Source of the DNA: a virus
Lineage: Duplodnaviria; Caudoviricetes
Direction: 5' to 3' (one strand)
Length of the DNA: 64,000 nucleotides
Virus record (IMG/VR): IMGVR_UViG_3300012956_000023
Coordinates: 3,493-67,492 of that record
In this document: piece after piece, positions 3,826 to 43,407 of the stretch
Layout of the letters: the number at the start of each line of letters is the position of its first letter
Numbering within the stretch: position 1 is the stretch's first letter
Position numbers and translations under genes: made by a program
Notes under the pieces: model-generated
What the model saw: the letters and a program-made list of their open reading frames with translations, nothing else
Databases searched by the model: none
Told to the model about the DNA's origin: nothing

Positions 3826-3827
3826 AA

Positions 3828-4582: not shown

Positions 4583-4610
4583 TTATCCCTTTTGATTTTA
4601 GAGATTGTCC

Positions 4611-5048: not shown

Positions 5049-5108
5049 TTCGACCCTCCTTTTAGGTTTCTGACTTTTTCCCGACGACACCCTTAAGAGT
5101 TGCAAAAC

Positions 5109-5742: not shown

Positions 5743-5863
5743 TGTATACTTTCTGTAAATCTATAGTATTAGAGCAGTTTACACATCTCATTACTTTGAT
5801 AGTAACAAAATAGTCTGTAACGTCATCATTTACCATAAATCCTTGGCAACGTGGACAAATCAT
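5666..5863 (-). CDS. small zinc-ribbon protein
   Basis: CPRC-x18-RCVNC. Confidence 0.6.
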   Translation of the reverse strand: MICPRCQGFMVNDDVTDYFVTIKVMRCVNCSNTIDLQKVYNADSNMWRHRVDKPKKGKSHSLQHK

Positions 5864-6432: not shown

Positions 6433-6439
6433 ATCTACC

Positions 6440-6877: not shown

Positions 6878-6885
6878 AAATTCCT

Positions 6886-7326
6886 TTATACTACATTAGT
6901 TACAACAATTACTCGATCATCTAGTATATGCTCGATTGTAGGTTTTACATACTCCCAATCAAGACCTCCTAAACCACACCCTGGTCTAGGAAGATACACT
7001 CGCTCTAATCTATATGTCTCAATAAGTTTTATTAATTCTAAACAGGATTGTTGAACTAATTCCACAGTTGAGAAAGTATGCCAATTATCCTTAGTAGGAA
7101 AAGATATCAATCTCTCATATATAAATATCCCACAATGATTTCCATTAGCCATAACATGAATACCAAATAATTGACTAATATGTGGAAATCTATCTACTGC
7201 TTCCTTAGCAATACCACCCCCCATTACTAACCGGTTATCCTTATTTAGAGATCCGTTAGTAGTGATGCAAATCCATTCTCCTTTTTTATGGAGATCCCAT
7301 AACTCAGCAACTAATTCTTTCATCAT
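6886..7326 (-). CDS. macrodomain (ADP-ribose binding/hydrolase) protein
   Basis: ITTNG..VMGGGIA, FPTK, LPRPGCGLGGLDW. Confidence 0.88.
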   Translation of the reverse strand: MMKELVAELWDLHKKGEWICITTNGSLNKDNRLVMGGGIAKEAVDRFPHISQLFGIHVMANGNHCGIFIYERLISFPTKDNWHTFSTVELVQQSCLELIKLIETYRLERVYLPRPGCGLGGLDWEYVKPTIEHILDDRVIVVTNVV

Positions 7327-7451
7327 ATCTCCTATTATATATAGTCCAATCTATGGGCCACATTCAACATATCCTCTAATGATAGCACTGTAATCTCTTT
7401 AATCATGATTTATCAACCTATTTACGCTCAGTTTGGTTCATGCACCGTCAA

Positions 7452-7805
7452 TTACATTGACGCGGGCACGGCTTCGGGCTTTAATAAAGCACCTTGTATA
7501 GGGCTTTCTTGGAGTTCGAATTTGTGTAAGAACACAATTTCATCACCTTTAAAGCCTTTAGGATGGATAGTTTCCCATACTTTTACAAATTCATTAGGAG
7601 ACTTACATCCTTCTTGTTCATAATACTCAGTAGCTACTACCTTCAACGGTACTACAATTACAGATTTAACTAGGAATATATATCCAAATGCAGCAAACGT
7701 ATCTCCCGGATTAGCCATACATGAAGTACGACAGGTCATAGTTTTATCACCAGAGATCATCAAACTCTTCCATTTATGTAGGAAAGAGATATTACGTTTT
7801 GCCAT
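7452..7805 (-). CDS. ASCH/PUA-like domain protein
   Basis: GDKTMTCRT, PGDTF, YEQEG..SP.EF..VW. Confidence 0.7.
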   Translation of the reverse strand: MAKRNISFLHKWKSLMISGDKTMTCRTSCMANPGDTFAAFGYIFLVKSVIVVPLKVVATEYYEQEGCKSPNEFVKVWETIHPKGFKGDEIVFLHKFELQESPIQGALLKPEAVPASM

Positions 7806-8295
7806 TTTCTTTCCCCCATATTGCTTCATGTAGATCTTTGACTTTTACTTCTCGTACCCGTACCATATACGTAGCAGCCAGACGATACACCATCCCATAA
7901 TAATGAATCTCTGCATCATCTGGAAGTAGAAATTCATATGGATACGCATACTGTGCCTTATATCCCTTAGTATGCTCTTGAACTTCCCCCCACAGAGAAA
8001 CTCTCCCTATTATTCCAACTTTATCAGCATTTCCAATAGCACCGGTAATACGAATTACCGATCCTTTTACATCTGGAGTATATTGTCTACAAGAATCAAG
8101 ATCCTTGAATGCAAAGACAGCATGAGTACGATCCTTAGCAACAATAGGTTGCATAGGAAGCCATTGATGCTTTTCAGGCACTCCGTGCTCATCTGTAACA
8201 ATAGGACATATAGAATATGTGGGTTGGTTATTGATCATCTTTGTTTTCACCACCCACATACGAATACCGATTTTTATTCCAGGGATTTGTTTCAT
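7792..8295 (-). CDS. hypothetical protein
   Basis: IGIRMW and GRVSLWGEVQEHTKGYKAQYAYP motifs. Confidence 0.6.
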   Translation of the reverse strand: MKQIPGIKIGIRMWVVKTKMINNQPTYSICPIVTDEHGVPEKHQWLPMQPIVAKDRTHAVFAFKDLDSCRQYTPDVKGSVIRITGAIGNADKVGIIGRVSLWGEVQEHTKGYKAQYAYPYEFLLPDDAEIHYYGMVYRLAATYMVRVREVKVKDLHEAIWGKENGKT

Positions 8296-8329
8296 ATGAA
8301 TCTCCAATACCAACTACCATGTTGATAGT

Positions 8330-8357
8330 GACTAGGGGAGCCAATTCTCCCCTAGTC
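8330..8357. terminator. 11-bp perfect hairpin without clear U-tract
   Basis: GACTAGGGGAG-CCAATT-CTCCCCTAGTC. Confidence 0.45.
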
Positions 8358-8368
8358 GTAACCTGTTA

Positions 8369-8503
8369 TTAGGCAGGGACTTCTTCTTGGTGTTGAGGAG
8401 CCTCTTGTGGTACATAACTAGGCTCTGGTTCATACACCGGAGGGATAGGAACTTTCAATGGAATCATCTCGTACTCTTCTTGTGGCTCACCAATAATTGC
8501 CAT
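8369..8503 (-). CDS. 44-aa Pro/Glu-rich peptide (not in ORF track)
   Basis: MAIIGEPQEEYEMIPLKVPIPPVYEPEPSYVPQEAPQHQEEVPA; ATG overlaps ATPase stop. Confidence 0.65.
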   Translation of the reverse strand: MAIIGEPQEEYEMIPLKVPIPPVYEPEPSYVPQEAPQHQEEVPA

Positions 8504-9294
8504 TACTTCCTCCCAATGTTCTTAATGTTAGACGCACTAGCCGCAGCAGACTTCTTCATTGGGTCGATAATTGTCATCTGTGCCAAATCTCTCCAAGTTT
8601 CAGGACGATGCTTGGCCAACTGTGCAATCTTCACAAAAGTACGAATGGACATATAATCGATGTTGTCCTTCTCTTGGTACAACCAGTATGCAATCTCAAA
8701 TCCAGTTTGAGTATCGCAATAATCATTCTGAGTTGCCACCGAGAATATCTTGGCCAATTTCTCCATATTGGTAACATCCATGCTCACCATATGAAAACGA
8801 TCCGTCAGTGCTTTAAAGTGAACCGAATTGCAACTTGCATTCGTGATGATAATAACCGACGAATCAAATTGGTACGATTCAAACTTGGCCCCACGGAATG
8901 CAGTGTTCCAAGAAACTACACGTTTCGCACGCATTTCAGTAGCAGCCTTCAACACGTTCATGCTAGTCTGCTCTTGAAATACTCCGTCACAGTCGTCGAA
9001 CACCAAGAGATCAGAAATGGTATTATGCTCTCCAAGCAGATTGAATGTCTGCAACGGAGTAATATGTCCTGAACTCCAAGTAGGAACAATAGGGTTCGGA
9101 TGGTTCTTGATATAATTTTCTTTAAGAAAATCGGCAATACTAAACGACTTACCAATTCCAGGAGCGCCATCGATAATTAGCCCGTTAATAGCATGCTCCG
9201 CAGCAAGCCCTACCATATCAAGCATCAGTTTGAATTTCTTGTCAATGCTTGCTAGGTTTTCTTTGTAGGCTTCGTTGAAATGCTGTGCGCTCAT
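8503..9294 (-). CDS. P-loop ATPase (AAA-like)
   Basis: Walker A GAPGIGKS, Walker B LLVFDD; GGAGG RBS before ATG 9294. Confidence 0.85.
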   Translation of the reverse strand: MSAQHFNEAYKENLASIDKKFKLMLDMVGLAAEHAINGLIIDGAPGIGKSFSIADFLKENYIKNHPNPIVPTWSSGHITPLQTFNLLGEHNTISDLLVFDDCDGVFQEQTSMNVLKAATEMRAKRVVSWNTAFRGAKFESYQFDSSVIIITNASCNSVHFKALTDRFHMVSMDVTNMEKLAKIFSVATQNDYCDTQTGFEIAYWLYQEKDNIDYMSIRTFVKIAQLAKHRPETWRDLAQMTIIDPMKKSAAASASNIKNIGRK

Positions 9295-29029: not shown

Positions 29030-30721
29030 ATGGAACTTATTCCTCCTATTCAAAAATGGCTCAAGGATATATTCGGTACTAAAGATTTAGGTCCAGAATT
29101 AACTCAAGCCTTAGCTGCGAAGACAGGTTTAGAAACCATCAATATTGATGGTAAGGAAGAACCCTTACCTCCTGGTCTAGATCTTTCAGGTAAAGAATTA
29201 TCTTTTTATAAGTCATGGTTAGAGACGTATAAGACAGAGGATGAGTCTCGCTTATTACGTTATAAGACATATGACATTATGGATCAGAATTCATCTGATG
29301 TACAGTTAATGTTGGATACCTTCCGAGATGAAGCATTATCTGTAGGATTTGTGGAGGAACCAGTAGAAATTAACATTACTGGTAGCAGTAAAGCGAAGAC
29401 TGATATCCTTACAGTACTAGCTGAGAATAAAGTACTTGAGAATAAGTTAGGTGACATACGTTCCATTGCTAAATATGGAGATATGTATAAGCGATTAATT
29501 ATTGAAGGTGATCCTGCGAAACCTACAATTCAAATCGCGAATATGTCTCAATATGAAGTTGAAGTGACATATCTAAAGGAAATAAAGAAGAAACTTGGGT
29601 ATATCATTGATCGTATGAAGAAAGATGCCGCATCTGCTCGAGCGGTAGTTCGTCAACCTGGTGTGGATACTAGATATCGTCTCCAGCCATGGGAGATAGT
29701 TCAGTTCAATATACCTGATAATCAGTATGAACCATATGGTCGATCGATCCTTGAAGCAGTACGAGTTCCATTTGATCAGTTAGTTACAATGGAAGCATTG
29801 TATGCGGTGACTCGTGCTAATAGAGTAGAACGATTGATTGTAAAAATTCCTACGAATGCTACGAACCCTACAAATGCATTCAAGAAATTACAGGAAGTAC
29901 GATCATTCTTTAAGTCAGTCATTCTTGGACAACCAATGACAGGTAGATCAACTATCAATAAAGATATTGGTCTAACTGATATGATTTGGATGCCTGCGGA
30001 TGAAGGATATGAACTAGATAAGATTGCTAGTTCTATTGACGTATCTTCAGATGAAGATGTACGATATTTCTTAGAAAAGTTCATTGCTGCATCTCGTCTA
30101 CCTAAAGGTTTCTTCCTATCAGATCAAGCTACTGATAGAGGATCAATGTTATCGAGTCAAGATCTCAAGTTTGCTCGAGCATTGTTACCTCTCCAGAAAG
30201 CCTATACTGAAGGGCTGACAATGATGTGTACTTATATAGGTACTATTCTTGGACATGATAATTTTGATGTTCAAGTAAATCTATTTAAGCCACCTCAGAT
30301 TAATCGTGAGCAGGTAGAAATGTATGCGGCTCAGATCAATGTAGCTCAATCTCTAATCGGAGCATTCAAATCAGCTGCATTCGAGCAAGATCCAAATGCA
30401 GGTGGTGCAGTCAATGTAACTCCTGATACGTTTGTGACTGTCCTAGAAAAGTTAGGAATTCCTGAGCCTATCTTGGATGTACTTCGTAGTGCCGAAATGG
30501 TACAGCAGATTCCTACTGAAAGTGTGAAGGAAACTGTAAAGAAAGTTCTAGAATCTCCAGCTCGAGCTATTGCAGTATCTTCTAGGTCAAGTGAGATGTT
30601 TACTAAGTCTCATTTGAAGGTGCTTCGTGAGTCTTATGTAAGTTCATTTACTAAGTTACAGAAGCAATCTAAAAAATCGAATAAGGTAGAAGTAACTACT
30701 TCGATAGTAGAGAAGAAATAA
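29030..30721 (+). CDS. portal protein (T4 gp20-like)
   Basis: YGRSILEAVR..QL..MEA..V.R..R, DVRYF.EK..A..LPKGF, QDLKFAR; upstream of protease and MCP. Confidence 0.9.
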   Translation: MELIPPIQKWLKDIFGTKDLGPELTQALAAKTGLETINIDGKEEPLPPGLDLSGKELSFYKSWLETYKTEDESRLLRYKTYDIMDQNSSDVQLMLDTFRDEALSVGFVEEPVEINITGSSKAKTDILTVLAENKVLENKLGDIRSIAKYGDMYKRLIIEGDPAKPTIQIANMSQYEVEVTYLKEIKKKLGYIIDRMKKDAASARAVVRQPGVDTRYRLQPWEIVQFNIPDNQYEPYGRSILEAVRVPFDQLVTMEALYAVTRANRVERLIVKIPTNATNPTNAFKKLQEVRSFFKSVILGQPMTGRSTINKDIGLTDMIWMPADEGYELDKIASSIDVSSDEDVRYFLEKFIAASRLPKGFFLSDQATDRGSMLSSQDLKFARALLPLQKAYTEGLTMMCTYIGTILGHDNFDVQVNLFKPPQINREQVEMYAAQINVAQSLIGAFKSAAFEQDPNAGGAVNVTPDTFVTVLEKLGIPEPILDVLRSAEMVQQIPTESVKETVKKVLESPARAIAVSSRSSEMFTKSHLKVLRESYVSSFTKLQKQSKKSNKVEVTTSIVEKK

Positions 30722-30723
30722 TT

Positions 30724-31089
30724 ATGAGTGATTCAATTCTATCTCCTAAAGTATTTAAGTTCAGTCGTATAACTGAGACTTTAGTACTTCAGGAATCAGT
30801 AGCTGAAGATCTGAATGACCTGGTGGATATCTTTCTAGTACGTAATCTTTTAGAATGTCATTTACCACCAGACTCATATCAGAATGCACTCGATAATTTA
30901 TTTGGATATAAGCCCATCCTCGTTGATCTTGGGGAGCGGGTAGTGTATGGTATTGAAACTCCTTCTGGTGAAGAAGTGTATGATCAATATCGTCGAGATC
31001 ATATTTATACTAGAGCTCCTCTGCGTGAAGGGGAGTATGAAATACTATCAGGAGACATTCATGTCAGCACTAGACCACTCCCAAACTAA
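30724..31089 (+). CDS. hypothetical head-region protein
   Basis: LVLQES-type motifs. Confidence 0.6.
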   Translation: MSDSILSPKVFKFSRITETLVLQESVAEDLNDLVDIFLVRNLLECHLPPDSYQNALDNLFGYKPILVDLGERVVYGIETPSGEEVYDQYRRDHIYTRAPLREGEYEILSGDIHVSTRPLPN

Positions 31090-31465
31090 TGAGCCTATTG
31101 ATCTGTCGTTAATGCAATTATGTCGTGTACGGTTTCGATTCATTATAGGTAATACTAAATCATCTAGAATGTCGAAGCTATTCTTTGTATATTGTAATAA
31201 ATGGTCTGCACTAATGGTGAAAGTGCAGGCGAATAAAGATATCACTGTGTATGAACATTTACCAGAACTTCGTAAATTGATTACTAAGGATACTAAGGTA
31301 TCGGACATTATTCAGTATGTAGAGCACTTTAATTCTGAAGAACTCAACATGTTGATGAATGCCCAGCCATTATTCAACATTGCTCCGTTAGACCTCAAGT
31401 GTTACATTCTTGCAGTACTCGGTCTCCGCCCATTCCATTTCGAGACGAAGACCGAATCGGTATAA
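31043..31465 (+). CDS. hypothetical protein (start uncertain; track ORF begins 30947)
   Basis: coding-like frame from MKYYQETF. Confidence 0.45.
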   Translation, partial: YYQETFMSALDHSQTNEPIDLSLMQLCRVRFRFIIGNTKSSRMSKLFFVYCNKWSALMVKVQANKDITVYEHLPELRKLITKDTKVSDIIQYVEHFNSEELNMLMNAQPLFNIAPLDLKCYILAVLGLRPFHFETKTESV

Positions 31466-31499
31466 TATAGTTCATATTAGTTTCCCTGAAGGATTTATA

Positions 31500-33494
31500 A
31501 TGTCAGATTTAATTCTACTTCGTGAGTCAGGAATAGCTATTGATTTTTCAAAAGTACAGTTATCCGAGGCTATTCTTGAGTCTACAAATGATAAGGGTAT
31601 GTACCTGACACTTCCGGTATGTATTCTTGATAAGCCTACTGCGAATAAGCGTACGTATACTTCTGAGATGATGTCAAAATCAATTCAGGAGGCTGCTACT
31701 GCTATTGCCGGACGTCGTCTGTTATGTTCTGCTGATGATCATCCTCAGGGAACTCACGTAGCTCCTATCCATGCATCCCACATCGTTATTGAGGCATGGG
31801 TGGATAATGGAGTACTATGGAATAAATGGTTTATCCTTGATACTGATAATGGACGTAATCTCCAAGCATTGATCAGAGGACGTGCCTCAGTTGGAACATC
31901 GATTCGTGGTCTTGGGTCTATGTCTCGATTGAATCATGTTGAGAATTATCAGTACTTAGGAACTGATGCGGTAGGAAATCCTGCTGCTGGTACGTATGCT
32001 CTACCAGGTGTTGAGGGTGTGAAGGTAGAAGTATGTGAGTCTGCAGAAAGTTTTCTTGAAGCTGCTGACCCTGAATATGTAAAAGGAATTGAAGACACTG
32101 TTAAAAATTATGGATTTAAGTATAGTCATCAAGATGATGTAACTAATGTTCATTATTTTAGACATCCTGATGGATCAAAAGTATTAGCTGGTACTAAAGG
32201 GTGGAAGTGGCTTGATAAAAATGGAGGTAATGCTCTAAAAGGTCAAGAATATGATACTTTAGAACGTCATCTTCGTACTATGCATAAAGGAACTCAGAAA
32301 GAATCTGCTGATGAATCTGTAAGTCTTCCAGGTGTAGGTGAAGTCACTGTTGGTACTGTTCTGCAATATAAAGGTCTGGAATGGAAAGTAGAGAGTATTG
32401 TAACCTCTGGTGATCTATGGAAACTTACATTAGTTAATACTACGAACTCAATGATGAATACTTGGCTGAGATCTGAGGATATTCCTAATCCAGCTTCACA
32501 AATGGTTATAATAGCAGAATCTAAAGGAAATGTAATGTCTAAAGTTCAGAATTACCTTGATAAGATTAATGAAGCTGCATCGAAGTTAGCGGGTATCACT
32601 CAGAAGTCAAATTCTAAGCATGATCAGTTGAAGTTTATCTCTATGTTTGAATCTGATCTGTCGAATGCGAAGGATTTATCAGGTGAAGAGTTAAAGGGTG
32701 TGCTTGAGCAATGGGAGTCTCTAAAAGTAGAAGCATGTAAGCCAAAACCTGCATCAACAATTGATGATCAGATGAGTCAATTGAAGGGTACAGTGTCTGA
32801 GCTCACTTCGTTAGTTCATCAAGTGTTGAATAATAAATTGTCTCAGGTGAATGAAGAAGAGCAGAAGCAGATTGCAGTAATGCGTCAATTCTATAGCTTT
32901 GATGATCGTAAGGTCAAGGAAGCATTGAGTGCGTATAGTGCACACAAGGATGATCCAAAGTCATTCGCTGAAGAATTGATTTCTCGATTAGGTGTACAGG
33001 TTGGTGGAGTCAATTTAAATCAATTATTTGATGACTTGACTGACGCTGCTGGTGATTATCAACATACTGGAGTTCCAGCTGTAGCTCAGAACTTAGTTAC
33101 TTCTGAGAGGGTGGAAGAATTACAGGCGGAGAATGCTGAATATGAAGCATTGTTAGATGAATTCGTAACTAAAGTAGATTCAGGTGAATTGTTATCTAAG
33201 GAATTTGTTGTAGAACAGATGACTAAGGTAATTACTGAATCACGTAATACTATTCGCAGACATCAGGTTCGTGAAGCACTAGCTGTTGAAGTAGCAGTTG
33301 AGACGATTATCAAGTCTACTCTAAATAGCAAGAAGTTGGCTGAGAGCAATAAGCAGAATGCTCAATTGGTCGAGGCACTTACGGTCATAATAAATAACCT
33401 TCGTGAGTCCTTACTTAAGAAGGAAGGTAAAATAATTGCTACTGATTATACTAAAGATAAGAAAACGTTTATCCCTGGGCGTACTACTCGATAA
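31500..33494 (+). CDS. prohead protease (gp21-like) fused to a long scaffold/core region
   Basis: DDHP (catalytic His) and GTSIRGLGS (Ser motif, cf. gp21 SSRGLGS); acidic coiled-coil C-terminal half; ATG 31500 with GAAGGA RBS. Confidence 0.85.
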   Translation: MSDLILLRESGIAIDFSKVQLSEAILESTNDKGMYLTLPVCILDKPTANKRTYTSEMMSKSIQEAATAIAGRRLLCSADDHPQGTHVAPIHASHIVIEAWVDNGVLWNKWFILDTDNGRNLQALIRGRASVGTSIRGLGSMSRLNHVENYQYLGTDAVGNPAAGTYALPGVEGVKVEVCESAESFLEAADPEYVKGIEDTVKNYGFKYSHQDDVTNVHYFRHPDGSKVLAGTKGWKWLDKNGGNALKGQEYDTLERHLRTMHKGTQKESADESVSLPGVGEVTVGTVLQYKGLEWKVESIVTSGDLWKLTLVNTTNSMMNTWLRSEDIPNPASQMVIIAESKGNVMSKVQNYLDKINEAASKLAGITQKSNSKHDQLKFISMFESDLSNAKDLSGEELKGVLEQWESLKVEACKPKPASTIDDQMSQLKGTVSELTSLVHQVLNNKLSQVNEEEQKQIAVMRQFYSFDDRKVKEALSAYSAHKDDPKSFAEELISRLGVQVGGVNLNQLFDDLTDAAGDYQHTGVPAVAQNLVTSERVEELQAENAEYEALLDEFVTKVDSGELLSKEFVVEQMTKVITESRNTIRRHQVREALAVEVAVETIIKSTLNSKKLAESNKQNAQLVEALTVIINNLRESLLKKEGKIIATDYTKDKKTFIPGRTTR

Positions 33495-33529
33495 GAGTTA
33501 CAGGGAATTGGTTCGAGAAAGAGGATTAT

Positions 33530-33850
33530 ATGAGTGTAATGAAAGCTCTTTTAAATGAGAAGTCAAATCAGTCAGTTGAGGAATTTAAGCAGAATGTGAT
33601 TACCGAGGGAGTTCGTATTTTCGAATCCGGAGTAGATTCACCATTCAAGATGAGTTCCTTGAAGGAAGATAATCAGTTGCAGAGCTTGTTTGAATCAACA
33701 AACGAGAAGGATCAGAAGCGAGCGGCATTAACATGTATCGCTTTGGAGAATCAGGCTGCATGGTTGCATGGAGTTATTAAGAACTACGGCGAAGCTACTG
33801 TTATGGGTAGCTTGGGTGCTCTTACTCCTAAGATCATGGACGTGGTGCGT
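33530..33850 (+). CDS. major capsid protein exon 1 (107 codons)
   Basis: ends ...TPKIMDVVR at U33850, which pairs with the intron IGS. Confidence 0.9.
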
Positions 33851-35012
33851 TACTAACTTGGTTCGGGTAGACCAATATGCGCACAAAAAATCCCGTGAAT
33901 TGCTGGAAACTCCTATAGAGCCATAGACGCTAATATAACAGGAAACTGGTATAAAGTAAAGTTCTATGGATTGGACAATCAGCAGCCAAGCTCCTGTGAC
34001 GAAAGTCTGGAGAAGGCCCAGAGACTAGTGAAGAGATTATACTATGATTACTTGTCTTATTTGTAATAAAGAATTAAGTATTTTATGTAGCCACCTTAAA
34101 AGGATTCATAAAATTTCTAAAGAAGATTATGTATTAAAGTTTCCAGGCGCACAAATAATTAGTGAGGAAGAAACTTTAAGAAGGTCTAATTCAAATTACA
34201 AATTATGGGCAAGTCGTACTGAGGAGGAAAAGTCTAAGGCAGGTAAGATTAGAAGACAAGGATGGACTAATGAATCTCATATAAATATGGTTCAGTCTAA
34301 ATTGTCTTATTATCAGACTTTGTCTAGTGAAGAAAGAATTAAGCTTCTTGAAAAGATGAATACTATGTCTATTAATTTTCATAATTCTCCAAAATATGAA
34401 GTCAATAGGCTAGTAAGAAATAATCATATTTCAGAAGGTCATCTTAGAAATGTACAAAGAGATTCGAGTCAATATGTAAAGAGAATGTTGAATGCAAATT
34501 CTAAAATGCATTATTGGCTTAGAACTTGTTCAGAAGATGAACTTAGTTCTTTTCTTAAAAGATCTTTCTTAAAACCTCCAAAGCTTAGTACTTTTGAATA
34601 TAAAGGAAAAGCTTATAAAGTACGCTCTTCTTATGAAAAGCTAGTGCTTAAAGTTCTTGTTGATTTTAACTTGAATTTTAAGTATGAAGTATGCTTAAAA
34701 CGGCCTGATGGTCGTAGGTATATGGCTGACTTCATAGTAGAAGATAAGTTATGTTTAGAGCCTAAGTCTATTTATTATGTAGAAGCTCAAGGTGGTGAAT
34801 ACGATTTAGGTATGAAGAGATTAGCTGCTGAAAATAAGAACTATAAATTTGTTCTTTTAACAGAAGTTGAAATCTTTAAATGTAACTTAAAAGAAATTAT
34901 AAGATCTCTTTGCCACGAGTGCGGGATACAGATTAAGGAATCTGTAATGATATAGTCCGAACTCATATGAAAGTATGAGAAGACAAGATAAAGAACTTGT
35001 CGTTAACATTTG
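33851..35012 (+). mobile_element. group I intron 1 in MCP (1162 nt)
   Basis: P AATTGCTGGAAAC 33898, Q AATCAGCAGCC 33977, R ..GAGACTA 34016-27, S GATATAGTCC 34949; P1 GUGCGU/GCGCAC; P10 AAUAU/AUAUU; terminal G. Confidence 0.93.
34044..34955 (+). CDS. intron-encoded homing endonuclease (Zn finger + PD-(D/E)XK, TnsA-like)
   Basis: CLIC..HLKRIH; RSSYEK..FKYE..YMADF..LEPK. Confidence 0.8.
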   Translation: MITCLICNKELSILCSHLKRIHKISKEDYVLKFPGAQIISEEETLRRSNSNYKLWASRTEEEKSKAGKIRRQGWTNESHINMVQSKLSYYQTLSSEERIKLLEKMNTMSINFHNSPKYEVNRLVRNNHISEGHLRNVQRDSSQYVKRMLNANSKMHYWLRTCSEDELSSFLKRSFLKPPKLSTFEYKGKAYKVRSSYEKLVLKVLVDFNLNFKYEVCLKRPDGRRYMADFIVEDKLCLEPKSIYYVEAQGGEYDLGMKRLAAENKNYKFVLLTEVEIFKCNLKEIIRSLCHECGIQIKESVMI

Positions 35013-35024
35013 ATATTTTATCCT
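35013..35024 (+). CDS. major capsid protein exon 2 (12 nt, IFYP)
   Basis: ATATTTTATCCT between the terminal G of intron 1 and P1 of intron 2. Confidence 0.88.
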
Positions 35025-35993
35025 CAGGAAGTAGCATTTAGCTAACTGATTAGGGATAGTAAAACGGGTTGAATTGCTGGGAGGTCCTTAGAACTGTGGA
35101 AGCTACAACGCAGATGGAAACGTCAATCGTGAATGCCGAAAATCTCCACGGATTGGATAATCAGCAGCTAAGCTCCTGTAGTGAAAACTTGGAGCCAGTT
35201 CAACGACTAACTGATTTATCGTATGATAGTAAGAACGATCTAGTTATCTGCAGATTATGTGGTGTAACTAGACGTAAGCTGTACTTTCATCTTCGTTGCG
35301 ATCATAATTTATCTCAACAGGAATATCTTAAACAATTTCCTGGTGCGAAACTGTTTTCTAATTTAGAAATGAATTATAGAAAAGGTTTCTTAGATAAAGG
35401 TCGTAATTTAGATACTACGACAAGATTGAAGACGAATGAAATTCTTAGTAATCGTACAAAAGAGTTTCATAAATCTTTTTGGACTTCGAATAATCCTGAG
35501 GTTCTAGATCGTCGTAGAAAATTAAGTAAAGCTGGACAAACAAGTGTTCGTAGTCAATGTCGGTTTAAGCAATATGAATATCAAGGAATAACGTATAAAT
35601 TACGAAGTAATTTAGAATTCGTATTTATTCAGTTTTTAATTGATAATCAAATTGAGTATCAATATGAACCGTTTATTCTAGAAATTGGTGAAGTATCTAC
35701 TACTCCTGATTTTTATTTACCGAAGTACAATTTGGTAATAGAATGTAAAGGTTCCTATTGGTATAGAAAACGTCAAGAAATGTATGATAAAGTGATTGCT
35801 GGAGTTAAAGCAATTCATAATTATAATTACTTGATGTTAATTGATGTTGAAACGAAACCGAGTTTGCAATTGTTATTAGATAAATTGGACACGAGTAGCT
35901 CGGCAGTTCTCTATACAGAGGATTGTGTGATATAGTCTGAACTATCTAGAGATAGATAGATGATAGGATAAAGAGCCTATCGATAACAAAATG
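35025..35993 (+). mobile_element. group I intron 2 in MCP (969 nt)
   Basis: P 35072, Q 35159, R GTTCAACGACTA 35198, S 35929; P1 UAUCCU/GGGAUA; P10 UGAUU/AAUCA; terminal G. Confidence 0.93.
35069..35935 (+). CDS. intron-encoded homing endonuclease (Zn finger + PD-(D/E)XK); start uncertain
   Basis: CRLC..HLRCDH; RSNLE..YQYEP..TPDF..IECK. Confidence 0.8.
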   Translation: MNCWEVLRTVEATTQMETSIVNAENLHGLDNQQLSSCSENLEPVQRLTDLSYDSKNDLVICRLCGVTRRKLYFHLRCDHNLSQQEYLKQFPGAKLFSNLEMNYRKGFLDKGRNLDTTTRLKTNEILSNRTKEFHKSFWTSNNPEVLDRRRKLSKAGQTSVRSQCRFKQYEYQGITYKLRSNLEFVFIQFLIDNQIEYQYEPFILEIGEVSTTPDFYLPKYNLVIECKGSYWYRKRQEMYDKVIAGVKAIHNYNYLMLIDVETKPSLQLLLDKLDTSSSAVLYTEDCVI

Positions 35994-37001
35994 AATCAAG
36001 TAGCTCACTTGTTAACTGATATTCAACCTCTGACTCAGCAAACTGGTCAGATCTTCATCATCAAGCCAAAGTATTCACAGACAGCTGGTGGTGTGACAAA
36101 GGGTCAGGAAGTCTTCAAGAATATGTCTGATGGTACATACGCATCAGAGAAGATGACTGTAACTCTTGGTACAGGTAACGCATCTTTAGTCAACTTCGTA
36201 GGATCCCTCCAGGCTCCTGTGAAGCGTGATGGTACTGTGATCATTAAGCGTGCAGGTACGAAGGTAGCTGCTGATAATGGTCTTGGTGCTATCCTTGGTA
36301 CTGACGGTGCTGCTACTATCTCTGGTACAGTGAACTATGATACTGGTGCCATTGCTGTTCTTTGGTCAGCTGCTCCTGCAACTGGTGCGGTAACTGTTGA
36401 GTTCTTGGCTGATTCCGAAATCAACGTAAGCTTGATTCGTGAGTTGGAAATTTCTCTCGACATGGTGCCTGTGCGTGCACAAGAGCATCCATTGAAGGTA
36501 AAATGGAGCATCACAGCTCAGTTAGCTGCTCAGGCTCACCTGGGTATTGACATTGGTGATACGCTTACTGACTTAGCCGCACAGTTCGTGCGTGTTGAGC
36601 GTGATAAGCTGGTTATCGATGCTATTGCAAATAGTGCAACAGCTGACTCAGTGTTGAACTTCACTGCATCACAAAACGTAAACATTCCTAAGTGGCAGAC
36701 ATTCCAGGAAATCGAGTTGAAGCTGAATGCTGGTGAATCTAACATTCAGACAGCTAACGGTAACCGTGGAGGTGTCAGCTGGATCGTAGGTGGACAGAAC
36801 GCATGTAACATTTGGCGTACTGTTCGTGGATTCCAGGCGGATACGCCAAAGAACCCAATCGGTGCCCATAAGATCGGTACCCTTCGCGATGGCGATGTGG
36901 ATGTGATCAAGGCTCCGTTCCTAGATACCGATAAGTATGTAATCGGATTCAAGGGTTATATGCCTGGAGATAGTGCTATGATTCTTGCGGAGTGGATCCC
37001 T
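35994..37001 (+). CDS. major capsid protein exon 3 (336 codons)
   Basis: DIQPLTQQTGQIF, V.A..H.LK.KWS.TAQ, E....VIDAI, IGFKG; T4 gp23/HK97-fold motifs. Confidence 0.92.
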
Positions 37002-38000
37002 GAAATGAATACAAACGGGGCACATGCAGGAAACTGCTTGTTGAATTAATTTTTATTAATTATCCTATAATTCAGAGGGTGAATTGCTGGAAACTCCAAT
37101 TACAAATCGGACAATCAGCAGCCAAGCTACTGAGGGATCAGTAGAAGGTTCAACGACTAGAGATAGTAATCTAGACCAGGTGAAATCTCCACGAGCGCCC
37201 TCTACCTTAATTGATAGAAATGAATCTTATGTGTATGTTTATCTGGATATTCGCAAACCAGGTAAATATACTTATACAAAGTTGAATGTCTCGTTTCTGT
37301 TTGAACCATTCTATGTTGGTAAAGGAATTGGCGGTAGGTATCTTAGTCATTTAGGAATTTTAAATGAATCTATAAGAAAAGGTTCTTATAAAGATAATAA
37401 GATTCTTAAAATTTATAAAGATACTAATAGAACTAATTTCATTACCAAAATAATGAAAGGTTTATCTGACATTGAAGCTTGTGAATTAGAACGTAAGTTC
37501 ATACAAGCAATTGGAAGATATGATCTTAAAACAGGCCCGTTAACTAATTTGACTGATGGTGGAGATGGGTTATTAAATCTGTCTGCAGAAGTCAGAAAAC
37601 GTGCAGGTATGGCAATTGCTATAACTCAAAAGGGTAATACGAGACGCTCCGATGTATTAAAAGGAAAACCAGCTTCGAAAGAAGTAAGAGAATTACTCTT
37701 AAGTTATACTTATAAAGGTCTTGGTGGTGCAGCTGGAAAGAACACTCCGAAAAGTGAATCTCACCGACTAGCTATTTCGGAAAATACAAAAGGTAAGCCG
37801 AAAACTCTTCGAGAGAAAACCTGCTTACTTTGTAATTCAAGAGTTCTATTTAAGTATGCATCAGTGATATCTCATTTTAAGCAACATAAAGTAATTTCTT
37901 ACAAGGATTCCTTGGTTCATTTATCAACAGGTAATGATATAGTCTGAGCTTCATGGTAACATGAAGAAGTGAAGATAAAGAACTTCACGGTAACAATCTG
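37002..38000 (+). mobile_element. group I intron 3 in MCP (999 nt)
   Basis: P 37082, Q 37113, R 37148, S 37936; short P1 CCCU/GGGG; terminal G at 38000. Confidence 0.9.
37084..37947 (+). CDS. intron-encoded GIY-YIG-like homing endonuclease; start uncertain
   Basis: YVYVYLD..PFYVGKG..R...H, E..FI..IG..PLTNL, NUMOD3-like KSESHRLAIS. Confidence 0.82.
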   Translation: MLETPITNRTISSQATEGSVEGSTTRDSNLDQVKSPRAPSTLIDRNESYVYVYLDIRKPGKYTYTKLNVSFLFEPFYVGKGIGGRYLSHLGILNESIRKGSYKDNKILKIYKDTNRTNFITKIMKGLSDIEACELERKFIQAIGRYDLKTGPLTNLTDGGDGLLNLSAEVRKRAGMAIAITQKGNTRRSDVLKGKPASKEVRELLLSYTYKGLGGAAGKNTPKSESHRLAISENTKGKPKTLREKTCLLCNSRVLFKYASVISHFKQHKVISYKDSLVHLSTGNDIV

Positions 38001-38129
38001 ATGTACTTCACTCCAGTATTCAATAGCCCTAACTTGCAGGGTGAAAGAGGTTTGATGAGCTTGTATGACTTGTTCATCAACAACCCTCTGTACTACCGTT
38101 CTGGAACAATTTCTAGCTACGGGGCATAA
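38001..38129 (+). CDS. major capsid protein exon 4 (42 aa, not in ORF track)
   Basis: MYFTPVFNSPNLQGERGLMSLYDLFINNPLYYRSGTISSYGA completes the typical MCP C-terminus after AEWIP. Confidence 0.9.
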   Translation: MYFTPVFNSPNLQGERGLMSLYDLFINNPLYYRSGTISSYGA

Positions 38130-38139
38130 TTAATCTCTG

Positions 38140-38167
38140 AGTGACCGGATGAAATACTCCGGTCACT
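38140..38167 (+). terminator. 10-bp hairpin after MCP
   Basis: AGTGACCGGA-TGAAATAC-TCCGGTCACT; weak U-tract. Confidence 0.55.
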
Positions 38168-38210
38168 TGGATTTAGAATAATAAGAATTATTAATTATCT
38201 TGAGGGTGAT

Positions 38211-38564
38211 ATGAATACTCCAGAATATGGAAAGATGTTAGAGAACGTTAGTGCTCATACGATTACTAACGTAGTGATTGATCCGAACTCAGAAGTAGAT
38301 GTTTACTCAAACAAAGGTGCATCTGGAGCTGTGCAATTTAATCTTCCTCCTGCTAAGCAGGGTATGAAGTTTACGTTCGTAGCTGAGGCTGCTCAGAACA
38401 TCGTAATTAAGCCAAATACTGGTGATAAGGTTGGTCTGGCTGGTACTCTTCAGACAGCAAATACTGCAATCACTGGAACAGGTGCACAGGGTCTTGTTTG
38501 TTCATTAGTCTGTTTGACAGATGGTGAATGGAAAGACGTGTTTCAGAGAGGTACTTGGGCCTAA
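38211..38564 (+). CDS. putative capsid decoration/fibre protein
   Basis: immediately after MCP; FNLPPAKQGMKFTFV beta-rich motif. Confidence 0.6.
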   Translation: MNTPEYGKMLENVSAHTITNVVIDPNSEVDVYSNKGASGAVQFNLPPAKQGMKFTFVAEAAQNIVIKPNTGDKVGLAGTLQTANTAITGTGAQGLVCSLVCLTDGEWKDVFQRGTWA

Positions 38565-38629
38565 TTGTGGATCTAGGTATTACTGCTAGGTGATTACTTA
38601 CCAGTGATGTTATCCCCTAGATTCATTAT

Positions 38630-38674
38630 GGAGAGGGGTTTCGGTAGAACTTACCTATCGCACCCCTCTCCTTT
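38630..38674 (+). terminator. long hairpin with T tail
   Basis: GGAGAGGGGT..CGGTAG..CTATCG..ACCCCTCTCC-TTT. Confidence 0.6.
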
Positions 38675-38713
38675 AAATTATAGGAGAATGTATAGTTTAT
38701 AGGTATAAACATA

Positions 38714-39004
38714 ATGGATCTTTCGTTTAACATTACTCTTGGAAACCTATTGTCAATTCTAGCGGCTATAGGTAGTACTGTTACTTTAATATACAAGTTT
38801 GGTAAGTCAGTAAAAACAGATATTGCTGAAGACGCAGTAGCTGATTCGAATGTAGAAAATCAGTTAAAATGGATCACCGATACTACTCGATTTCATGATG
38901 CCCATATTAATGATAGCGTTTGTCGTATTTCTGCGTTAGAAAAGGATGTAGCTTATATTAAGGGCAAGTTATCTAATAAACGACATGAGACTGATGAGGA
39001 ATAA
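38714..39004 (+). CDS. N-terminal TM plus coiled-coil protein
   Basis: ITLGNLLSILAAIG..ISALEKDV. Confidence 0.6.
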   Translation: MDLSFNITLGNLLSILAAIGSTVTLIYKFGKSVKTDIAEDAVADSNVENQLKWITDTTRFHDAHINDSVCRISALEKDVAYIKGKLSNKRHETDEE

Positions 39005-39213
39005 TCTCATGGAAATGGACTTTCAATTGATAAACTTCCAGACAATAATTGCAATAATAGTGATGATAATCTACTTCGGAGTAGCGTATAGGCTAGTAGG
39101 TGCATCGTGTAAAACTGTACATCACCGTAGGTTGCGTGATAAAGGGTTTCTCGGAGCGATTAAAGCAGGTATATTATTAGTAATGAATAGAATTTAAACA
39201 CTAGGAGAATACT

Positions 39214-39558
39214 ATGTACGAATATGCGTTATCTGATAAGATTAAATCCCCTGCATGTGTATGTGATGTAGATTTTGGAAGTGATAGGAGCATTATCCTT
39301 CGAGTGCGCCATGAGAGTCTAGATAAACTTGCAAAGGACGGATTTGTTGAAGTTTATCAATTAGACGGCAAAGGTAGACGTAACGGAGTTCCTATTATCG
39401 GTACAGTAGCTACCAATCCTCCACCGTTACCTGTACCTGCAGATTTGAAGCCTGAATCAGATATAGCTCCGAAAGATCCATTATCTGAGTATTCTGAAGA
39501 AGAACGTGTAGAGATTATGAAAGCACTAGAACTCGTTCGAAATAAACCTCAATCATAA
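39214..39558 (+). CDS. hypothetical protein
   Basis: GGAG RBS; 114 aa. Confidence 0.6.
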   Translation: MYEYALSDKIKSPACVCDVDFGSDRSIILRVRHESLDKLAKDGFVEVYQLDGKGRRNGVPIIGTVATNPPPLPVPADLKPESDIAPKDPLSEYSEEERVEIMKALELVRNKPQS

Positions 39559-39570
39559 CATAGAGATACA

Positions 39571-40563
39571 ATGTCATTACATGATAGACGACAATTTATA
39601 ATAGATTCAGTAAGATCTATTGTGGGATATCCGGTCATCAATACTCTTGATGTTGAGGTAGCCACAATAGATTTTGATGATGCACTACTTAGATATTATC
39701 AAGCTGCTCCTATTATACGTACTCGTACTTATGATGTAACTTTCAATCAAGAAACTCTAATTCCTATAGACCAAGTGCTTGAGTTAGAGTTTCCTTCAGT
39801 GTTGGTAGAAGACGAATCAATTGGTACTGCGAATAATACATTACTATCGTTCTCAAAGACGATAACTAAGGCTCCTATACGTCCAGGTAGTGTAATTATT
39901 AAGAGAGCGGGTACTGAGGTAGCTAATGATAATTCACTAGGAGACATTGCTGGCACTGATGGGGCAATGATTATTACTGGATCAGTGAATTATTTAGCTG
40001 GACAAGTAACTGTAGTTTATAATGCTGCTCCTGCATCTGGATCAATTACTGTTACTTATAGACAAGATAACAATAACTATTTCTATCTCGGTGTACTGAA
40101 CGAAGCATTTAAATCAAATATTATTCCTCGATATAACTTAGATCGGTTTCTTCTCGGTGTGGAGACTGGATTTGATCCAGTTAATGAATATAATCCGTTG
40201 AAGATGGCTGCACGGAATACATATGATCATATGTTGTCCGGTCAGACTACAATTGAGTATCGTCATGAAGAAGGTACAAAAGGAGTATTGCATGTGATCC
40301 CTATGGGAATAGGTACATGTGCAATTACTCATGCATTTGGATGTGTGAACATGGACCGAGTACCTATGAACCACATCTTTATGTTTGGAAATCTTGTAGC
40401 AGAGAAGTTTATTGAGAGAGTAATTTCAGTTCGTTCTGGAATTCAATTAAGTGCGGATTATCAAATTAATACTTCATACTTAGAGAAGAAACTCGCTGAA
40501 CTACATGAAGAAAATATCAGAGCCTTAGCTGAAATTGCAACTCCTGTAGTTCTATGGGGTTAA
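39571..40563 (+). CDS. neck/head-tail adaptor (gp13-like) with inserted beta domain
   Basis: position; IVGYP..DVEV..FDDAL..Y N-terminus; inserted domain shared with MCP. Confidence 0.6.
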   Translation: MSLHDRRQFIIDSVRSIVGYPVINTLDVEVATIDFDDALLRYYQAAPIIRTRTYDVTFNQETLIPIDQVLELEFPSVLVEDESIGTANNTLLSFSKTITKAPIRPGSVIIKRAGTEVANDNSLGDIAGTDGAMIITGSVNYLAGQVTVVYNAAPASGSITVTYRQDNNNYFYLGVLNEAFKSNIIPRYNLDRFLLGVETGFDPVNEYNPLKMAARNTYDHMLSGQTTIEYRHEEGTKGVLHVIPMGIGTCAITHAFGCVNMDRVPMNHIFMFGNLVAEKFIERVISVRSGIQLSADYQINTSYLEKKLAELHEENIRALAEIATPVVLWG

Positions 40564-40584
40564 ACTATTAGAACGTAGGAGCAT

Positions 40585-40791
40585 GTGGCAATGGCTGAAG
40601 GATTTTCTCCGTGGGTTCACCACCTACTTGGAATCATAGATACAGACAATCACCGTACTTGTATATTATGTGGCAAGGAAGTAGTATGGACATCTGATCC
40701 AGAGTTGGCTCGAGTTACTCAAGTATATGAACATGATAATCGATGGTTTATTAATACTCCTCCTGGTAACATAATTAAATGTAATGGATAA
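40585..40791 (+). CDS. small Cys/His protein
   Basis: HRTCILCG..KCNG. Confidence 0.45.
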   Translation: MAMAEGFSPWVHHLLGIIDTDNHRTCILCGKEVVWTSDPELARVTQVYEHDNRWFINTPPGNIIKCNG

Positions 40792-40794
40792 CCA

Positions 40795-43407
40795 ATGATT
40801 GCCTGGTTCTTATCTCCATATAAATTACAGAAACAGCTAAATAGACAAGTTCGGTATTGTCAGATCTTTGATCTATGGAATGAAATAGCTGAATCTGGGG
40901 GATATGCACATGAATTAGAGATTGCAGATAATCAGGCGTTAGTAAAAGTACGTGCATCTAGAAAAGTAATCTCTGATCTTAGTAAGATTCCTGGTAATAA
41001 GATTGTTACTGATCCAAGTAAATTATGGGGTCCAACAAGAATTCCTGTATCTATTGTTGATGGAGAACAAGTCAGTTCTAATAGACGACGTATTCCAAAT
41101 ACCCCTATTGGATTAATCGATCAGCATGTGTTTAATGACGATCAGCAAGAATTATTTAAGCGTCTTGCTGGAAAATCAATGGAATATGCTGAGAAGTTAG
41201 GTTATTATCGATTACCATACTTCATGCCAAATGATTTGAAGTATGCTATCCTTGGAGAAGTAGCTCCACAAGGATATGACCTTGGTAAGATTTCTCCAGG
41301 TACCTTCCCTACTCAGTCAGTATTTGATGATGCGAATCGTACTAATGAAGGTCCTCCTCCATCAGCATCATGGGTTAACGTCTCTGGTGTTAGTGGATTG
41401 AAAGTATCAGGTAATCGATGGGTTACTGATAGCGGTGGTGGATTCTGGATGACCAGATCATCTACTAACTTCGGTCCTGATTGTGAGTGTTTTTATGATA
41501 TCGTTACGCTGGATCGTAGTCAAGGTGGAGCTATTCAGATCTACATGAGAGATACTAATACCTCGCCTGGAGATAATTATCTCCTAGGGTGGTATACTGA
41601 TACTTCTCCTGCTGATACATTAACCTTTACTAGAAATGATGATGATGTTGGAACAAACTTAGGTTCCAGCATATCAATAAATTGTGCGTCAGGATATTCA
41701 TTTGGATTTGAAATTATAGGTTCTACGTTAGCAGGATATTACAGAACTACTAACTCAGGACCATTTAGTTTAATTTCTACTCGAGTAGATGCTACTTATA
41801 GTGCTACAGGTCGTATTCTAATAGCTATGGCTGGAGGTGCTGGCCATCAGTATGATAATATAGGTCGAGGAGCAGTTATTGTAGCTGGAGGTCCTATTCA
41901 GCCTACTGCTATCTCTAGTGCTCAAGCATTTGGAATTACCTCAGTTCTAGATCCAGGAGCGGTATTACAACCTACTGGATTAGCTAATGGACAATTAGTA
42001 ATTGCTTGGACTGCAAATACTGAGCCTGACTTAGCAGGTTACCGTATTTATTATGGATATGCTGCAGGCATTTATTCAGGGGTAGTTGATGTAGGATTTA
42101 CTGATACTCCTGGTAATCCTTCGTACTTATTAAGTAGTTTAAAGTTACAAGCTACTTATATTGCGTTAACTGCATATGATAACTCAAACAATGAGTCAGT
42201 ATTCTCATCTGAGTTTTCAGCAACTCCTACAGGACAAGTAATTAAAGGTGTTATAGTTACTAATTCAGTAAGACAATTATCTCCTACTTCAGTAGGACCA
42301 GCAGAGTCATTTGGACAGGTAACCGTTGTTCAACCAGATGGTATAGTAACTGTATCTGGAATAAGCACTGCAGAATTTATTAATACTGCATTATTAAACT
42401 TTATTGCAGTAATTTCAAATACTGGAATATCCCCAACTGAAGCATTTGGGACATTAAGTGTTGGTGGATTGCAAGTGAAGTTAACTTCAATACCTGAGAC
42501 TTATAGTGTATCTCAAATTATCATTATTGCTGGGAATGTAGATGTTCCTACTTCTTCAATAGCTTCATTGGAATCATTGAATGATCCTGAATTATTTACT
42601 AGTGCTAGTATTGTAAATACTGGAATTGTAAGTACTCAGGCATTAGGAAGTTTGGTAATATTCCGAGAATTTAGAATATTACCATATGAGATAGTTTCTA
42701 GTGAAGGATTTGGTAACTTTAATACTATAAAGACTAGAACTTTATCATTTACTGGAATTAGTTCATTAGAGAATGTAAATTCAATAACTCTGAAGAAGGA
42801 ATTGTTCTTTGTAGTCCCATCTACAATTACTACGGGTAATATAGTTGGAACTCCGTCATTAGGAGCATACTTTGGTACATTACTGAATATAAATCCAGTA
42901 AACAGTGCTGAAGCATTTGGATCAAGTTCATTATTGCCAGGTAGCGTAAATGTTAGCCCATCAGGAATTATTTCTGGGATAAATCTTGGAAATAGTCGAT
43001 TGTTGCTACAGAGCTATATTACTAACAGCTCAATAGCTTCAGTTGAAGGATTAGGTAGTGTAATAGTATTACCTGGTAATAGAAATGTAAATCCTTATGG
43101 AATATTCTCACTAGAGAACTTTGGTATTACCAAGATCAATAAAGTAATTGTTCTTGGGTCAATGCCGTCGTTAGAAGCATTCGGAAATATTAATTTAACT
43201 AGATTAATTAATCTTTCTGGTATTCCAACTCAAGAAGCTCTAACAAGCCCTGTACTTTCTTCTGGGCCTGTAGTGATTCTAGTTCCATCTTTCTTCCAGG
43301 GATCGACTCCTGGAGAGAATGCTTTAGTAACATTTACTGAAGAACCAGGAACCCCGACTATGACTATTGTAGCGGATCCGTTAATCTATAATATTCGGTC
43401 GACTTAA
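40795..43407 (+). CDS. large fibre/appendage protein: beta-sandwich, FN3 domain, ~16 C-terminal repeats
   Basis: WTANTEPDLAGYRIYYG FN3; repeated I.S.E.FG units. Confidence 0.7.
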   Translation: MIAWFLSPYKLQKQLNRQVRYCQIFDLWNEIAESGGYAHELEIADNQALVKVRASRKVISDLSKIPGNKIVTDPSKLWGPTRIPVSIVDGEQVSSNRRRIPNTPIGLIDQHVFNDDQQELFKRLAGKSMEYAEKLGYYRLPYFMPNDLKYAILGEVAPQGYDLGKISPGTFPTQSVFDDANRTNEGPPPSASWVNVSGVSGLKVSGNRWVTDSGGGFWMTRSSTNFGPDCECFYDIVTLDRSQGGAIQIYMRDTNTSPGDNYLLGWYTDTSPADTLTFTRNDDDVGTNLGSSISINCASGYSFGFEIIGSTLAGYYRTTNSGPFSLISTRVDATYSATGRILIAMAGGAGHQYDNIGRGAVIVAGGPIQPTAISSAQAFGITSVLDPGAVLQPTGLANGQLVIAWTANTEPDLAGYRIYYGYAAGIYSGVVDVGFTDTPGNPSYLLSSLKLQATYIALTAYDNSNNESVFSSEFSATPTGQVIKGVIVTNSVRQLSPTSVGPAESFGQVTVVQPDGIVTVSGISTAEFINTALLNFIAVISNTGISPTEAFGTLSVGGLQVKLTSIPETYSVSQIIIIAGNVDVPTSSIASLESLNDPELFTSASIVNTGIVSTQALGSLVIFREFRILPYEIVSSEGFGNFNTIKTRTLSFTGISSLENVNSITLKKELFFVVPSTITTGNIVGTPSLGAYFGTLLNINPVNSAEAFGSSSLLPGSVNVSPSGIISGINLGNSRLLLQSYITNSSIASVEGLGSVIVLPGNRNVNPYGIFSLENFGITKINKVIVLGSMPSLEAFGNINLTRLINLSGIPTQEALTSPVLSSGPVVILVPSFFQGSTPGENALVTFTEEPGTPTMTIVADPLIYNIRST

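Follow-up and report, generated by a model that had tools for sequence, protein, structure and literature searches.

The 64,000-nucleotide (nt) stretch of DNA analysed here, to which all coordinates refer and which we call the window, belongs to the IMG/VR virus record IMGVR_UViG_3300012956_000023, a metagenome assembly of 67.5 kb that is estimated by CheckV to be ~28% complete. Directly downstream of a head-maturation protease gene (31410-33494, phrog_207), and followed by small virion genes, lie four pieces of a major capsid protein (MCP) gene on the same strand, separated by inserts of 1162, 969 and 999 nt (Table 1). The pieces are 321, 12, 1008 and 129 nt long and, with every junction in phase 0, they join into 1470 nt, which translate as 489 codons followed by TAA. 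The gene is confirmed to be a Gp23-type MCP gene, coding for 489 amino acids (aa) and interrupted by three group I introns, each of which contains an open reading frame (ORF).

Table 1. Features of the interrupted capsid gene, in window coordinates unless stated otherwise; helices are given by the positions of their two strands, separated by a slash (IGS, internal guide sequence)
Feature	Position	Strand	Remarks
MCP exon 1	33530..33850	+	ORF; 107 codons, ends GTG CGT; aligns with N-terminal part of P0003 (54.5% identity, E 3e-29)
Group I intron 1	33851..35012	+	1162 nt; terminal G 35012
Intron 1 guides	P1 IGS 33879-84; P10 33874-78		
Intron 1 helices	P3 33890/34921; P4 33901/33979; P7 34023/34953; P7.x 34031/34904; P8 34928/34939; P9 34962/34974; P9.1 34982/34996		ORF in loop of P7.x
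Intron 1 ORF	34044..34955	+	303 aa; N-terminal Cys/His zinc finger and C-terminal domain with PD..ExK motif; putative homing endonuclease
MCP exon 2	35013..35024	+	12 nt, ATATTTTATCCT = IFYP
Group I intron 2	35025..35993	+	969 nt; terminal G 35993
Intron 2 guides	P10 35047-51; P1 IGS 35053-58		
Intron 2 helices	P3 35065/35896; P4 35075/35161; P7 35205/35933; P7.x 35212/35879; P8 35904/35917; P9 35942/35954; P9.1 35962/35976		ORF in loop of P7.x
Intron 2 ORF	35069..35935	+	Zinc finger and PD..ExK motif, family of intron 1 ORF; mechanical start TTG 35069, in-frame ATG 35114
MCP exon 3	35994..37001	+	336 codons, NQVAH...AEWIP; Gp23 PF07068 match
Group I intron 3	37002..38000	+	999 nt; terminal G 38000
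Intron 3 helices	P1 CCCUG/CGGGG 36998/37016; P2 37026/37034; P3 37074/37198; P4 37085/37115; P7 37155/37940; P8 37204+37211 / 37925+37929; P9 37949/37960; P9.1 37969/37983		ORF in loop of P8
Intron 3 ORF	37084..37947	+	GIY-YIG endonuclease (predicted); mechanical start TTG 37084; GTG 37171 nearest in-frame start upstream of GIY motif
MCP exon 4	38001..38129	+	42 codons and TAA; 74% identity to C-terminus of P0003
Possible terminator	38140..38174	+	10-bp GC-rich hairpin, then TGGATTT, just past MCP stop; read from sequence
Fourth intron of contig L023	L023 124-1192 (between window 36864 and 36865)		Site NPIG/AHK; GIY-YIG ORF in P5 loop; absent from window

Exon 3 alone matches the Pfam family Gp23 (PF07068) with 67.4 bits, the cut-off being 24.4, and a protein search with it returned 98 homologues. 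In comparison with the related contig L022, the capsid exons are under purifying selection, the ratio of nonsynonymous to synonymous substitution rates (dN/dS) being 0.31 for exon 1 (over 36 codons), 0.13 for exon 3 and 0.25 for exon 4. No second MCP copy was found within the 67.5-kb record.

On comparison with uninterrupted MCPs, the placement of the junctions can be followed residue by residue. The MCPs of the Xanthomonas phage phiXF1 and the Pseudomonas phage QdP_Psa3 are ~50% identical to the joined product and show no indel at any junction, reading VVRIFYPNLI and AEWIPLYASP across them; the QdP_Psa3 homologue, which is annotated as 'major head protein', is colinear with the spliced product over its full length. 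P0003, which is the same protein as that of L022 and shares 77% identity with the window, comes from a gene that is intron-less throughout, and its sequence over the junctions is VVRIFYPNQVAH (VVRIFYPNQ) and AEWIPMYFTP. Among the lines of sequence evidence, this colinearity is the strongest support for the junctions. The initial annotation of the window had staked its gene model on such homologues, and they are colinear at all three junctions; the exon coordinates it gave for a single 489-aa MCP frame proved exact on reading and translating the sequence, and the fragmentation it expected from automatic annotation can be seen in protein databases, which hold capsid pieces of 302-385 aa such as those beginning MNQVAH. 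Relatives among IMG/VR viral contigs were found by a profile scan, a scan with the single protein having returned none, and a megablast search of window positions 30000-42000 against a phage collection gave no match.

Additional proteins appear to derive from alleles with other sets of introns, the intron content of P0001, P0002, P0004 and P0005 being deduced from their starts and ends. P0001 (93% identity) starts M-IFYPNQVAH and continues uninterrupted past EWIPMYFTP to its end, as expected of an allele in which intron 1 is the sole intron, the TTG at that intron's 3' end probably having been taken as a false start. P0004 is without intron 3, and P0005 (74% identity) begins MNQVAH and ends with EWIP followed by intron read-through. 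An alternative acceptor for intron 3, the G at 38003, is ruled out, as both P0001 and P0003 retain the Met of EWIPMYFTP. At sites 1 and 3 the alleles also differ in the base that closes the exon, the codons being CGT and CCT in the window and CGG and CCA in the intron-less L022; T at the exon ends of the intron-bearing allele is explained by the U.G pair at the group I 5' splice site, which demands a U.

All three inserts are matched by the Rfam group I model RF00028, whose gathering score is 50 bits. Intron 3 scores 55.6 bits (E 2e-11) with cmscan, its 3' part giving an additional match of 30.7 bits. Introns 1 and 2 are each matched in two halves (31.7 bits at 33898-34032 and 20.7 bits at 34945-34977; 30.3 bits at 35070-35237 and 21.4 bits at 35815-35959), because an ORF of ~900 nt occupies the loop of the P7-P3' helix. 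No group I match besides these three was found on scanning the window and the record with the model. The cmscan alignments show P/Q/R/S core elements in all three introns and are the only place where P6 was seen, while P1, P3, P4, P7, the P7-P3' helix, P8, P9 and P9.1 were found by script to be complementary in each. As read at all six ends, every intron is preceded by T (33850, 35024 and 37001) and closes with G, and P1 includes a U.G pair in all three.

The helices P4 and P7 are identical among the three introns, whereas P3, P7.x, P8, P9 and P9.1 differ in sequence and yet pair in each, which indicates that the introns are diverged paralogues. Additional helices that lie between P7 and P3' would place them in subgroup IA. 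A 3' module consisting of P7', P9 and P9.1, with an AUAAAGAR loop and then GNUAACA, occurs as a DNA pattern in more than 115 IMG/VR contigs. Among 33 distinct 60-mers of this module, the three of the window included, the 13 base pairs that make up P9 and P9.1 are kept without exception (33/33), and 11 of them show double changes; the 155 double-change cells were reached by none of 500 shuffles. The covariation score is 0.937 against 0.200 in shuffles, and register-shifted controls are 26-50% paired. Helices other than P9 and P9.1 were compared among five paralogues only. In its 5' core, intron 3 is similar to introns of the Bastillevirinae DNA polymerase, of an E. coli phage terminase, of crAssphage and of Campylobacter phages.

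The guide pairings add to this for introns 1 and 2. A script recovered P1 GUGCGU/GCGCAC (33845/33879) and P10 AAUAU/AUAUU (33874/35013) for intron 1, and P1 UAUCCU/GGGAUA (35019/35053) and P10 UGAUU/AAUCA (35047/35994) for intron 2. When the first 80 bases of the intron were shuffled 20000 times and the best P1 plus P10 match out of 11 was scored, a full 11/11 match arose by chance in 128 shuffles (0.6%) for intron 1 and in 58 (0.3%) for intron 2. The core elements, the U before each 5' site with the terminal G, and the perfect 6-bp P1 and 5-bp P10 of the first two introns bear out what the initial annotation had proposed for the inserts; in the group I search in Rfam that it had suggested, intron 3 alone exceeds the gathering score.

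That annotation had also described all three introns as carrying endonucleases. An ORF is indeed present in each, and for intron 3 the predicted product can be firmly assigned as a GIY-YIG homing endonuclease, as it matches the Pfam family LEM-3_GIY-YIG (PF22945) with 30.7-31 bits against a cut-off of 27 and the homing endonuclease family phrog_314 at E 4.5e-10. For introns 1 and 2 the nuclease assignment is no more than a lead. The two products are related to each other (BLASTP E 6e-8), with a PDF/ADF...E-x-K motif conserved in both, and a PD-(D/E)XK nuclease fold may be considered. The intron 1 product matches phrog_22215 at E 9e-11 and ROS_MUCR weakly, below the cut-off, and among its neighbours in the ESM Atlas there are TnsA-like, Phage_endo_I and DUF559/Vsr families, likewise as leads only. 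Matches to PHROG endonuclease, homing endonuclease and Holliday junction resolvase families (E 1e-9 to 1e-5) were obtained with the intron 2 product, and the endonuclease and resolvase matches were seen with that product only and not with that of intron 1; its Pfam match to Vsr, with 16 bits, lies under the 27-bit cut-off.

The ORFs are placed in peripheral loops, namely that of the P7-P3' helix in introns 1 and 2 and that of P8 in intron 3, and all three stop within or just past the 3' strand of P7, the TAG of introns 1 and 2 lying inside that strand. The frames of the intron 2 and intron 3 ORFs are open far upstream through the ribozyme core (P4-P7; P5-P7 in intron 2). In intron 1, a purine-rich GAAGAGA located 7 nt before the ATG of the ORF forms the 5' strand of P7.x and is a possible ribosome-binding site, which suggests that folding of this ribozyme may compete with translation of the ORF. 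Such competition between folding and translation is known for I-TevI.

Exon 2 consists of only 12 nt. The tetrapeptide it encodes lies in the motif that, by the alignment consensus, is conserved best in the family; intron-less homologues have VVR directly before it and NQ directly after. Both neighbouring introns pair with the exon, intron 1 through P10 at bases 1-5 and intron 2 through P1 at bases 7-12. The shortest exons between group I introns of bacteria and phages that we found in the literature are the partly skipped 23-nt exon of Twort orf142 and a 34-nt exon in the Coxiella 23S rRNA gene (PMC10136302); the present exon is shorter than that of Twort, the shortest phage case found in print. 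Skipping of exon 2 would remove IFYP in frame. Different splice-site sequences at paired introns have been found to almost abolish exon skipping (PMC10136302), and since introns 1 and 2 differ in both P1 and P10 and have diverged peripheral helices, exon 2 would, by analogy, mostly be included in spliced transcripts. A more tentative idea, to which we give little weight, is that the two flanking ribozymes may be unable to engage exon 2 at once, as it is almost fully used by P10 of the one and P1 of the other and the active sites are possibly exclusive; splicing would then be ordered or cooperative, and a measurable fraction of transcripts could skip the exon and yield a capsid protein without the invariant IFYP. 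If true, no smaller internal exon would be on record between group I introns of a phage, and exon 2 would offer a natural system in which to study splicing by tandem ribozymes.

The MCP genes of related phages differ in the introns they carry. Contig L023, which like L022 comes from the metagenome sample Ga0272412, has exon DNA nearly identical to that of the window and bears a fourth group I intron (53.4 bits); two synonymous changes (GCC>GCA, GGT>GGA) lie just 3' of its insertion site, as in co-conversion, and the end of the contig coincides with the exon 3/intron 3 boundary. A more distant relative, L015 (41% identity), has introns of the P7'-P9-P9.1 family at two positions, site 1 and a fifth site (68.4 bits). 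Most IMG/VR relatives at or below 53% identity are uninterrupted. A patchy distribution of introns at conserved codons, together with flanking synonymous differences, is the pattern that homing would be expected to leave.

Group I introns were also observed in MCP genes further afield. In L091 (IMGVR_UViG_3300044846_005229, reverse complement 3500-8849), a jumbo-phage contig of 279 kb, the MCP is 59% identical to that of Synechococcus phage S-CBWM1 and its gene lies in at least eight exons, with introns of the window's P7'-P9-P9.1 family; the P7' motif occurs 11 times. Some of the exons measure 30-45 nt, and one of ~12 nt is implied by two introns that fall between residues 50 and 55. L092 (IMGVR_UViG_3300027763_000031), at positions 1-2229, has a related MCP gene with seven ORF-less group I cores ~290 nt apart and an apparent 10-nt exon AAGGAACAGT (~587-596), with a 6-bp P1 to the following intron.

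Taken as a mechanism, the arrangement would require the late pre-mRNA to lose three introns by guanosine-initiated self-splicing before it could encode the 489-aa protein, and we infer from the sequence features above that all three are spliced from the capsid pre-mRNA. Intron 1 would draw on the first five bases of exon 2 and intron 2 on its last six, and the different guides of these diverged paralogues would favour retention of the exon over skipping. Because the ORFs in the peripheral loops end inside the 3' strand of P7, ribosome transit and ribozyme folding would compete. During co-infection the introns would spread by homing into intron-less alleles, and homing may keep the MCP gene polymorphic for introns over at least five sites in this group of phages.

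We assign a probability of about 0.88 to the reading in which this is the only MCP gene of the record and is split at VVR/IFYP, IFYP/NQV and EWIP/MYF by mobile, ORF-bearing group I introns. Several observations weigh against it. No single match within intron 1 or intron 2 reaches the RF00028 gathering score. The P1 of intron 3 has 5 bp, and its P1 plus P10 match of 8/11 is not above chance (18057/20000 shuffles), in keeping with the initial annotation, which claimed perfect pairings for the first two introns only. The guide pairing was rejected as an argument for fixing this junction, whose support thus comes from the colinear homologues together with the U and the terminal G. Regarding the nuclease fold, neither the intron 1 nor the intron 2 ORF product, including the C-terminal half of the former, has a Pfam nuclease match above the cut-off, and a PDB sequence search with the intron 1 product came back empty. 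Finally, the record is a metagenome assembly, in which intron 3 may not share a molecule with introns 1 and 2 across the 1-kb exon 3.

This last point leads to the most probable of the alternatives, albeit an unlikely one, namely that strain variants were merged into one contig and that no single genome would carry all three of the introns, each of them real. The population is indeed polymorphic, with P0001 having intron 1 only and P0004 being without intron 3, L023 stops at the exon 3/intron 3 boundary and bears another intron, and exon 3 offers 1 kb of near-identical sequence in which a short-read assembler could switch strains. However, introns 1 and 2 are only 12 nt apart and hence necessarily linked, P0005 shows an intron at a 5' site and an occupied site 3 together in another lineage, and multi-intron MCP genes exist elsewhere, as in L091. 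It is less probable still, and in our view very improbable, that the inserts are decayed insertions which no longer splice, leaving a pseudogene or a capsid made from separate fragments. A protein encoded in fragments has a precedent in NrdA of the Aeromonas phage Aeh1, as mentioned in PMC7344957, the Rfam scores of introns 1 and 2 stay under the gathering cut-off, and with the record only partly complete an intact MCP copy could sit elsewhere in the genome. Against decay stand core helices that are all intact and covarying, a U and a terminal G at each junction, and guides of introns 1 and 2 that match the flanking exons; moreover, all exons are under purifying selection, a 4-codon exon would be useless as a separate polypeptide, and the existence of near-identical alleles whose sets of introns differ implies that introns were recently gained or lost in a gene that works.

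If the inserts were inteins or sites of programmed recoding instead of RNA introns, the phase 0 of all three would be accounted for, and endonuclease domains occur in inteins too. The exon frames, however, reach stops soon after each junction (after 15 codons in the exon 3 frame), and on these in-frame stops the intein explanation was rejected; Pfam searches gave no Hint or intein domains, and an RNA core with covarying helices is present. The likelihood that remains for it is negligible. Intron 3 was also checked for a recoded copy of the MCP C-terminus, and none was present; a read-through match there has stops in it and is due to exon 4 only. We therefore retain the reading of a working MCP gene interrupted by three mobile group I introns.

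Two features further downstream may be mentioned. The hairpin just past the MCP stop codon is a possible end of the MCP transcript; a consensus terminator scan did not flag it. In the ORF at 39571-40563, which encodes a 330-aa virion protein, the segment 39814-40071 shows ~47% identity (E 2.5e-17) to a segment of ~85 aa of the MCP corresponding to residues 170-254 of P0003, and the same is seen in L022; the two proteins may share a surface beta domain.

The locus provides a clean and fully mapped case in which mobile group I introns sit in the most conserved codons of the most abundant protein of a phage. It explains capsid fragments produced by gene callers, such as a 352-aa ORF beginning MNQVAH, and annotation pipelines should join such exons. 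The series of alleles (intron-less, with intron 1 only, or with a fourth or fifth site occupied) is suited to the study of homing, co-conversion and splicing by tandem ribozymes.

Group I introns of phages are biased toward genes of DNA metabolism and packaging (PMC11878797). Those of T4 td, nrdB and nrdD and of the Bastillevirinae DNA polymerase and terminase genes are, by core similarity, ribozymes of the same type as those of the window (PMC2988022, PMC11878797); they likewise hold GIY-YIG and other endonuclease ORFs in peripheral loops and move by homing, although their hosts are genes of DNA metabolism or packaging and not a capsid gene. Introns are plentiful in some phages, the Jug phages having a mean of 18.5 per genome (PMC12880540).

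Within capsid genes, the mycobacteriophage LittleE and the lactococcal phage Tuc2009 each have an intron in the capsid gene, and for LittleE splicing was shown by reverse transcription PCR and N-terminal sequencing (PMC3706429). As in the window, the intron is of group I type, contains a homing endonuclease gene and interrupts the gene of the major capsid protein, and a U precedes its 5' site while its last base is G; unlike the window, LittleE and Tuc2009 have one intron each and their MCP families are unrelated to that of the window. A close likeness in capsid genes is found among crAss-like phages, where, in the passages of PMC7886860 (Yutin et al. 2021) that describe it, the MCP gene carried by the Zeta-group metagenomic genome (cMAG) OLRF01000054 is in five fragments separated by endonuclease-bearing group I introns, and MCP introns are given as typical of the Delta group. 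In both cases a phage MCP gene known from metagenomic data is cut by group I introns, most of them with endonuclease-type domains, in a manner that confounds gene callers. The window differs in having four fragments and in belonging to another phage order and MCP family, and the micro-exon and guide-sequence analysis given here has no counterpart for OLRF01000054 in those passages.

Twort orf142, from a Staphylococcus phage, has three IA2 introns (Landthaler and Shub 1999, as described in passages of PMC10136302 and PMC11878797), and its product is the tail tube protein (PMC11878797). The parallel lies in three group I introns within one abundant late structural gene, with related introns flanking a very short exon; the differences, as far as those passages go, are that a tail tube protein and not an MCP is encoded, and that the exon, skipped in some transcripts, is 23 nt long against 12 nt here. 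We know of no ORFs in the orf142 introns, whereas all three introns of the window contain one. Outside phages, the placozoan mitochondrial cox1 gene has a 1-nt micro-exon between two group IB introns (PMC5436844), so group I splicing can cope with exons shorter than 12 nt. That case, although organellar and with an exon of 1 nt in place of 12, likewise places two independent group I introns almost adjacent to each other, with an exon too short for ordinary annotation. The initial annotation had stressed that group I introns of phages are known mostly from DNA-metabolism genes and had cited Twort as a precedent for three in one late gene; the precedent holds, but the rarity so implied was overstated, since multi-intron MCP genes have already been published and an interrupted capsid gene of this sort is not new in kind. 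What is particular to the window is the combination of ORFs in all three introns, a 12-nt exon and a series of natural alleles, and its value is that of a well-resolved case rather than the discovery of a kind.

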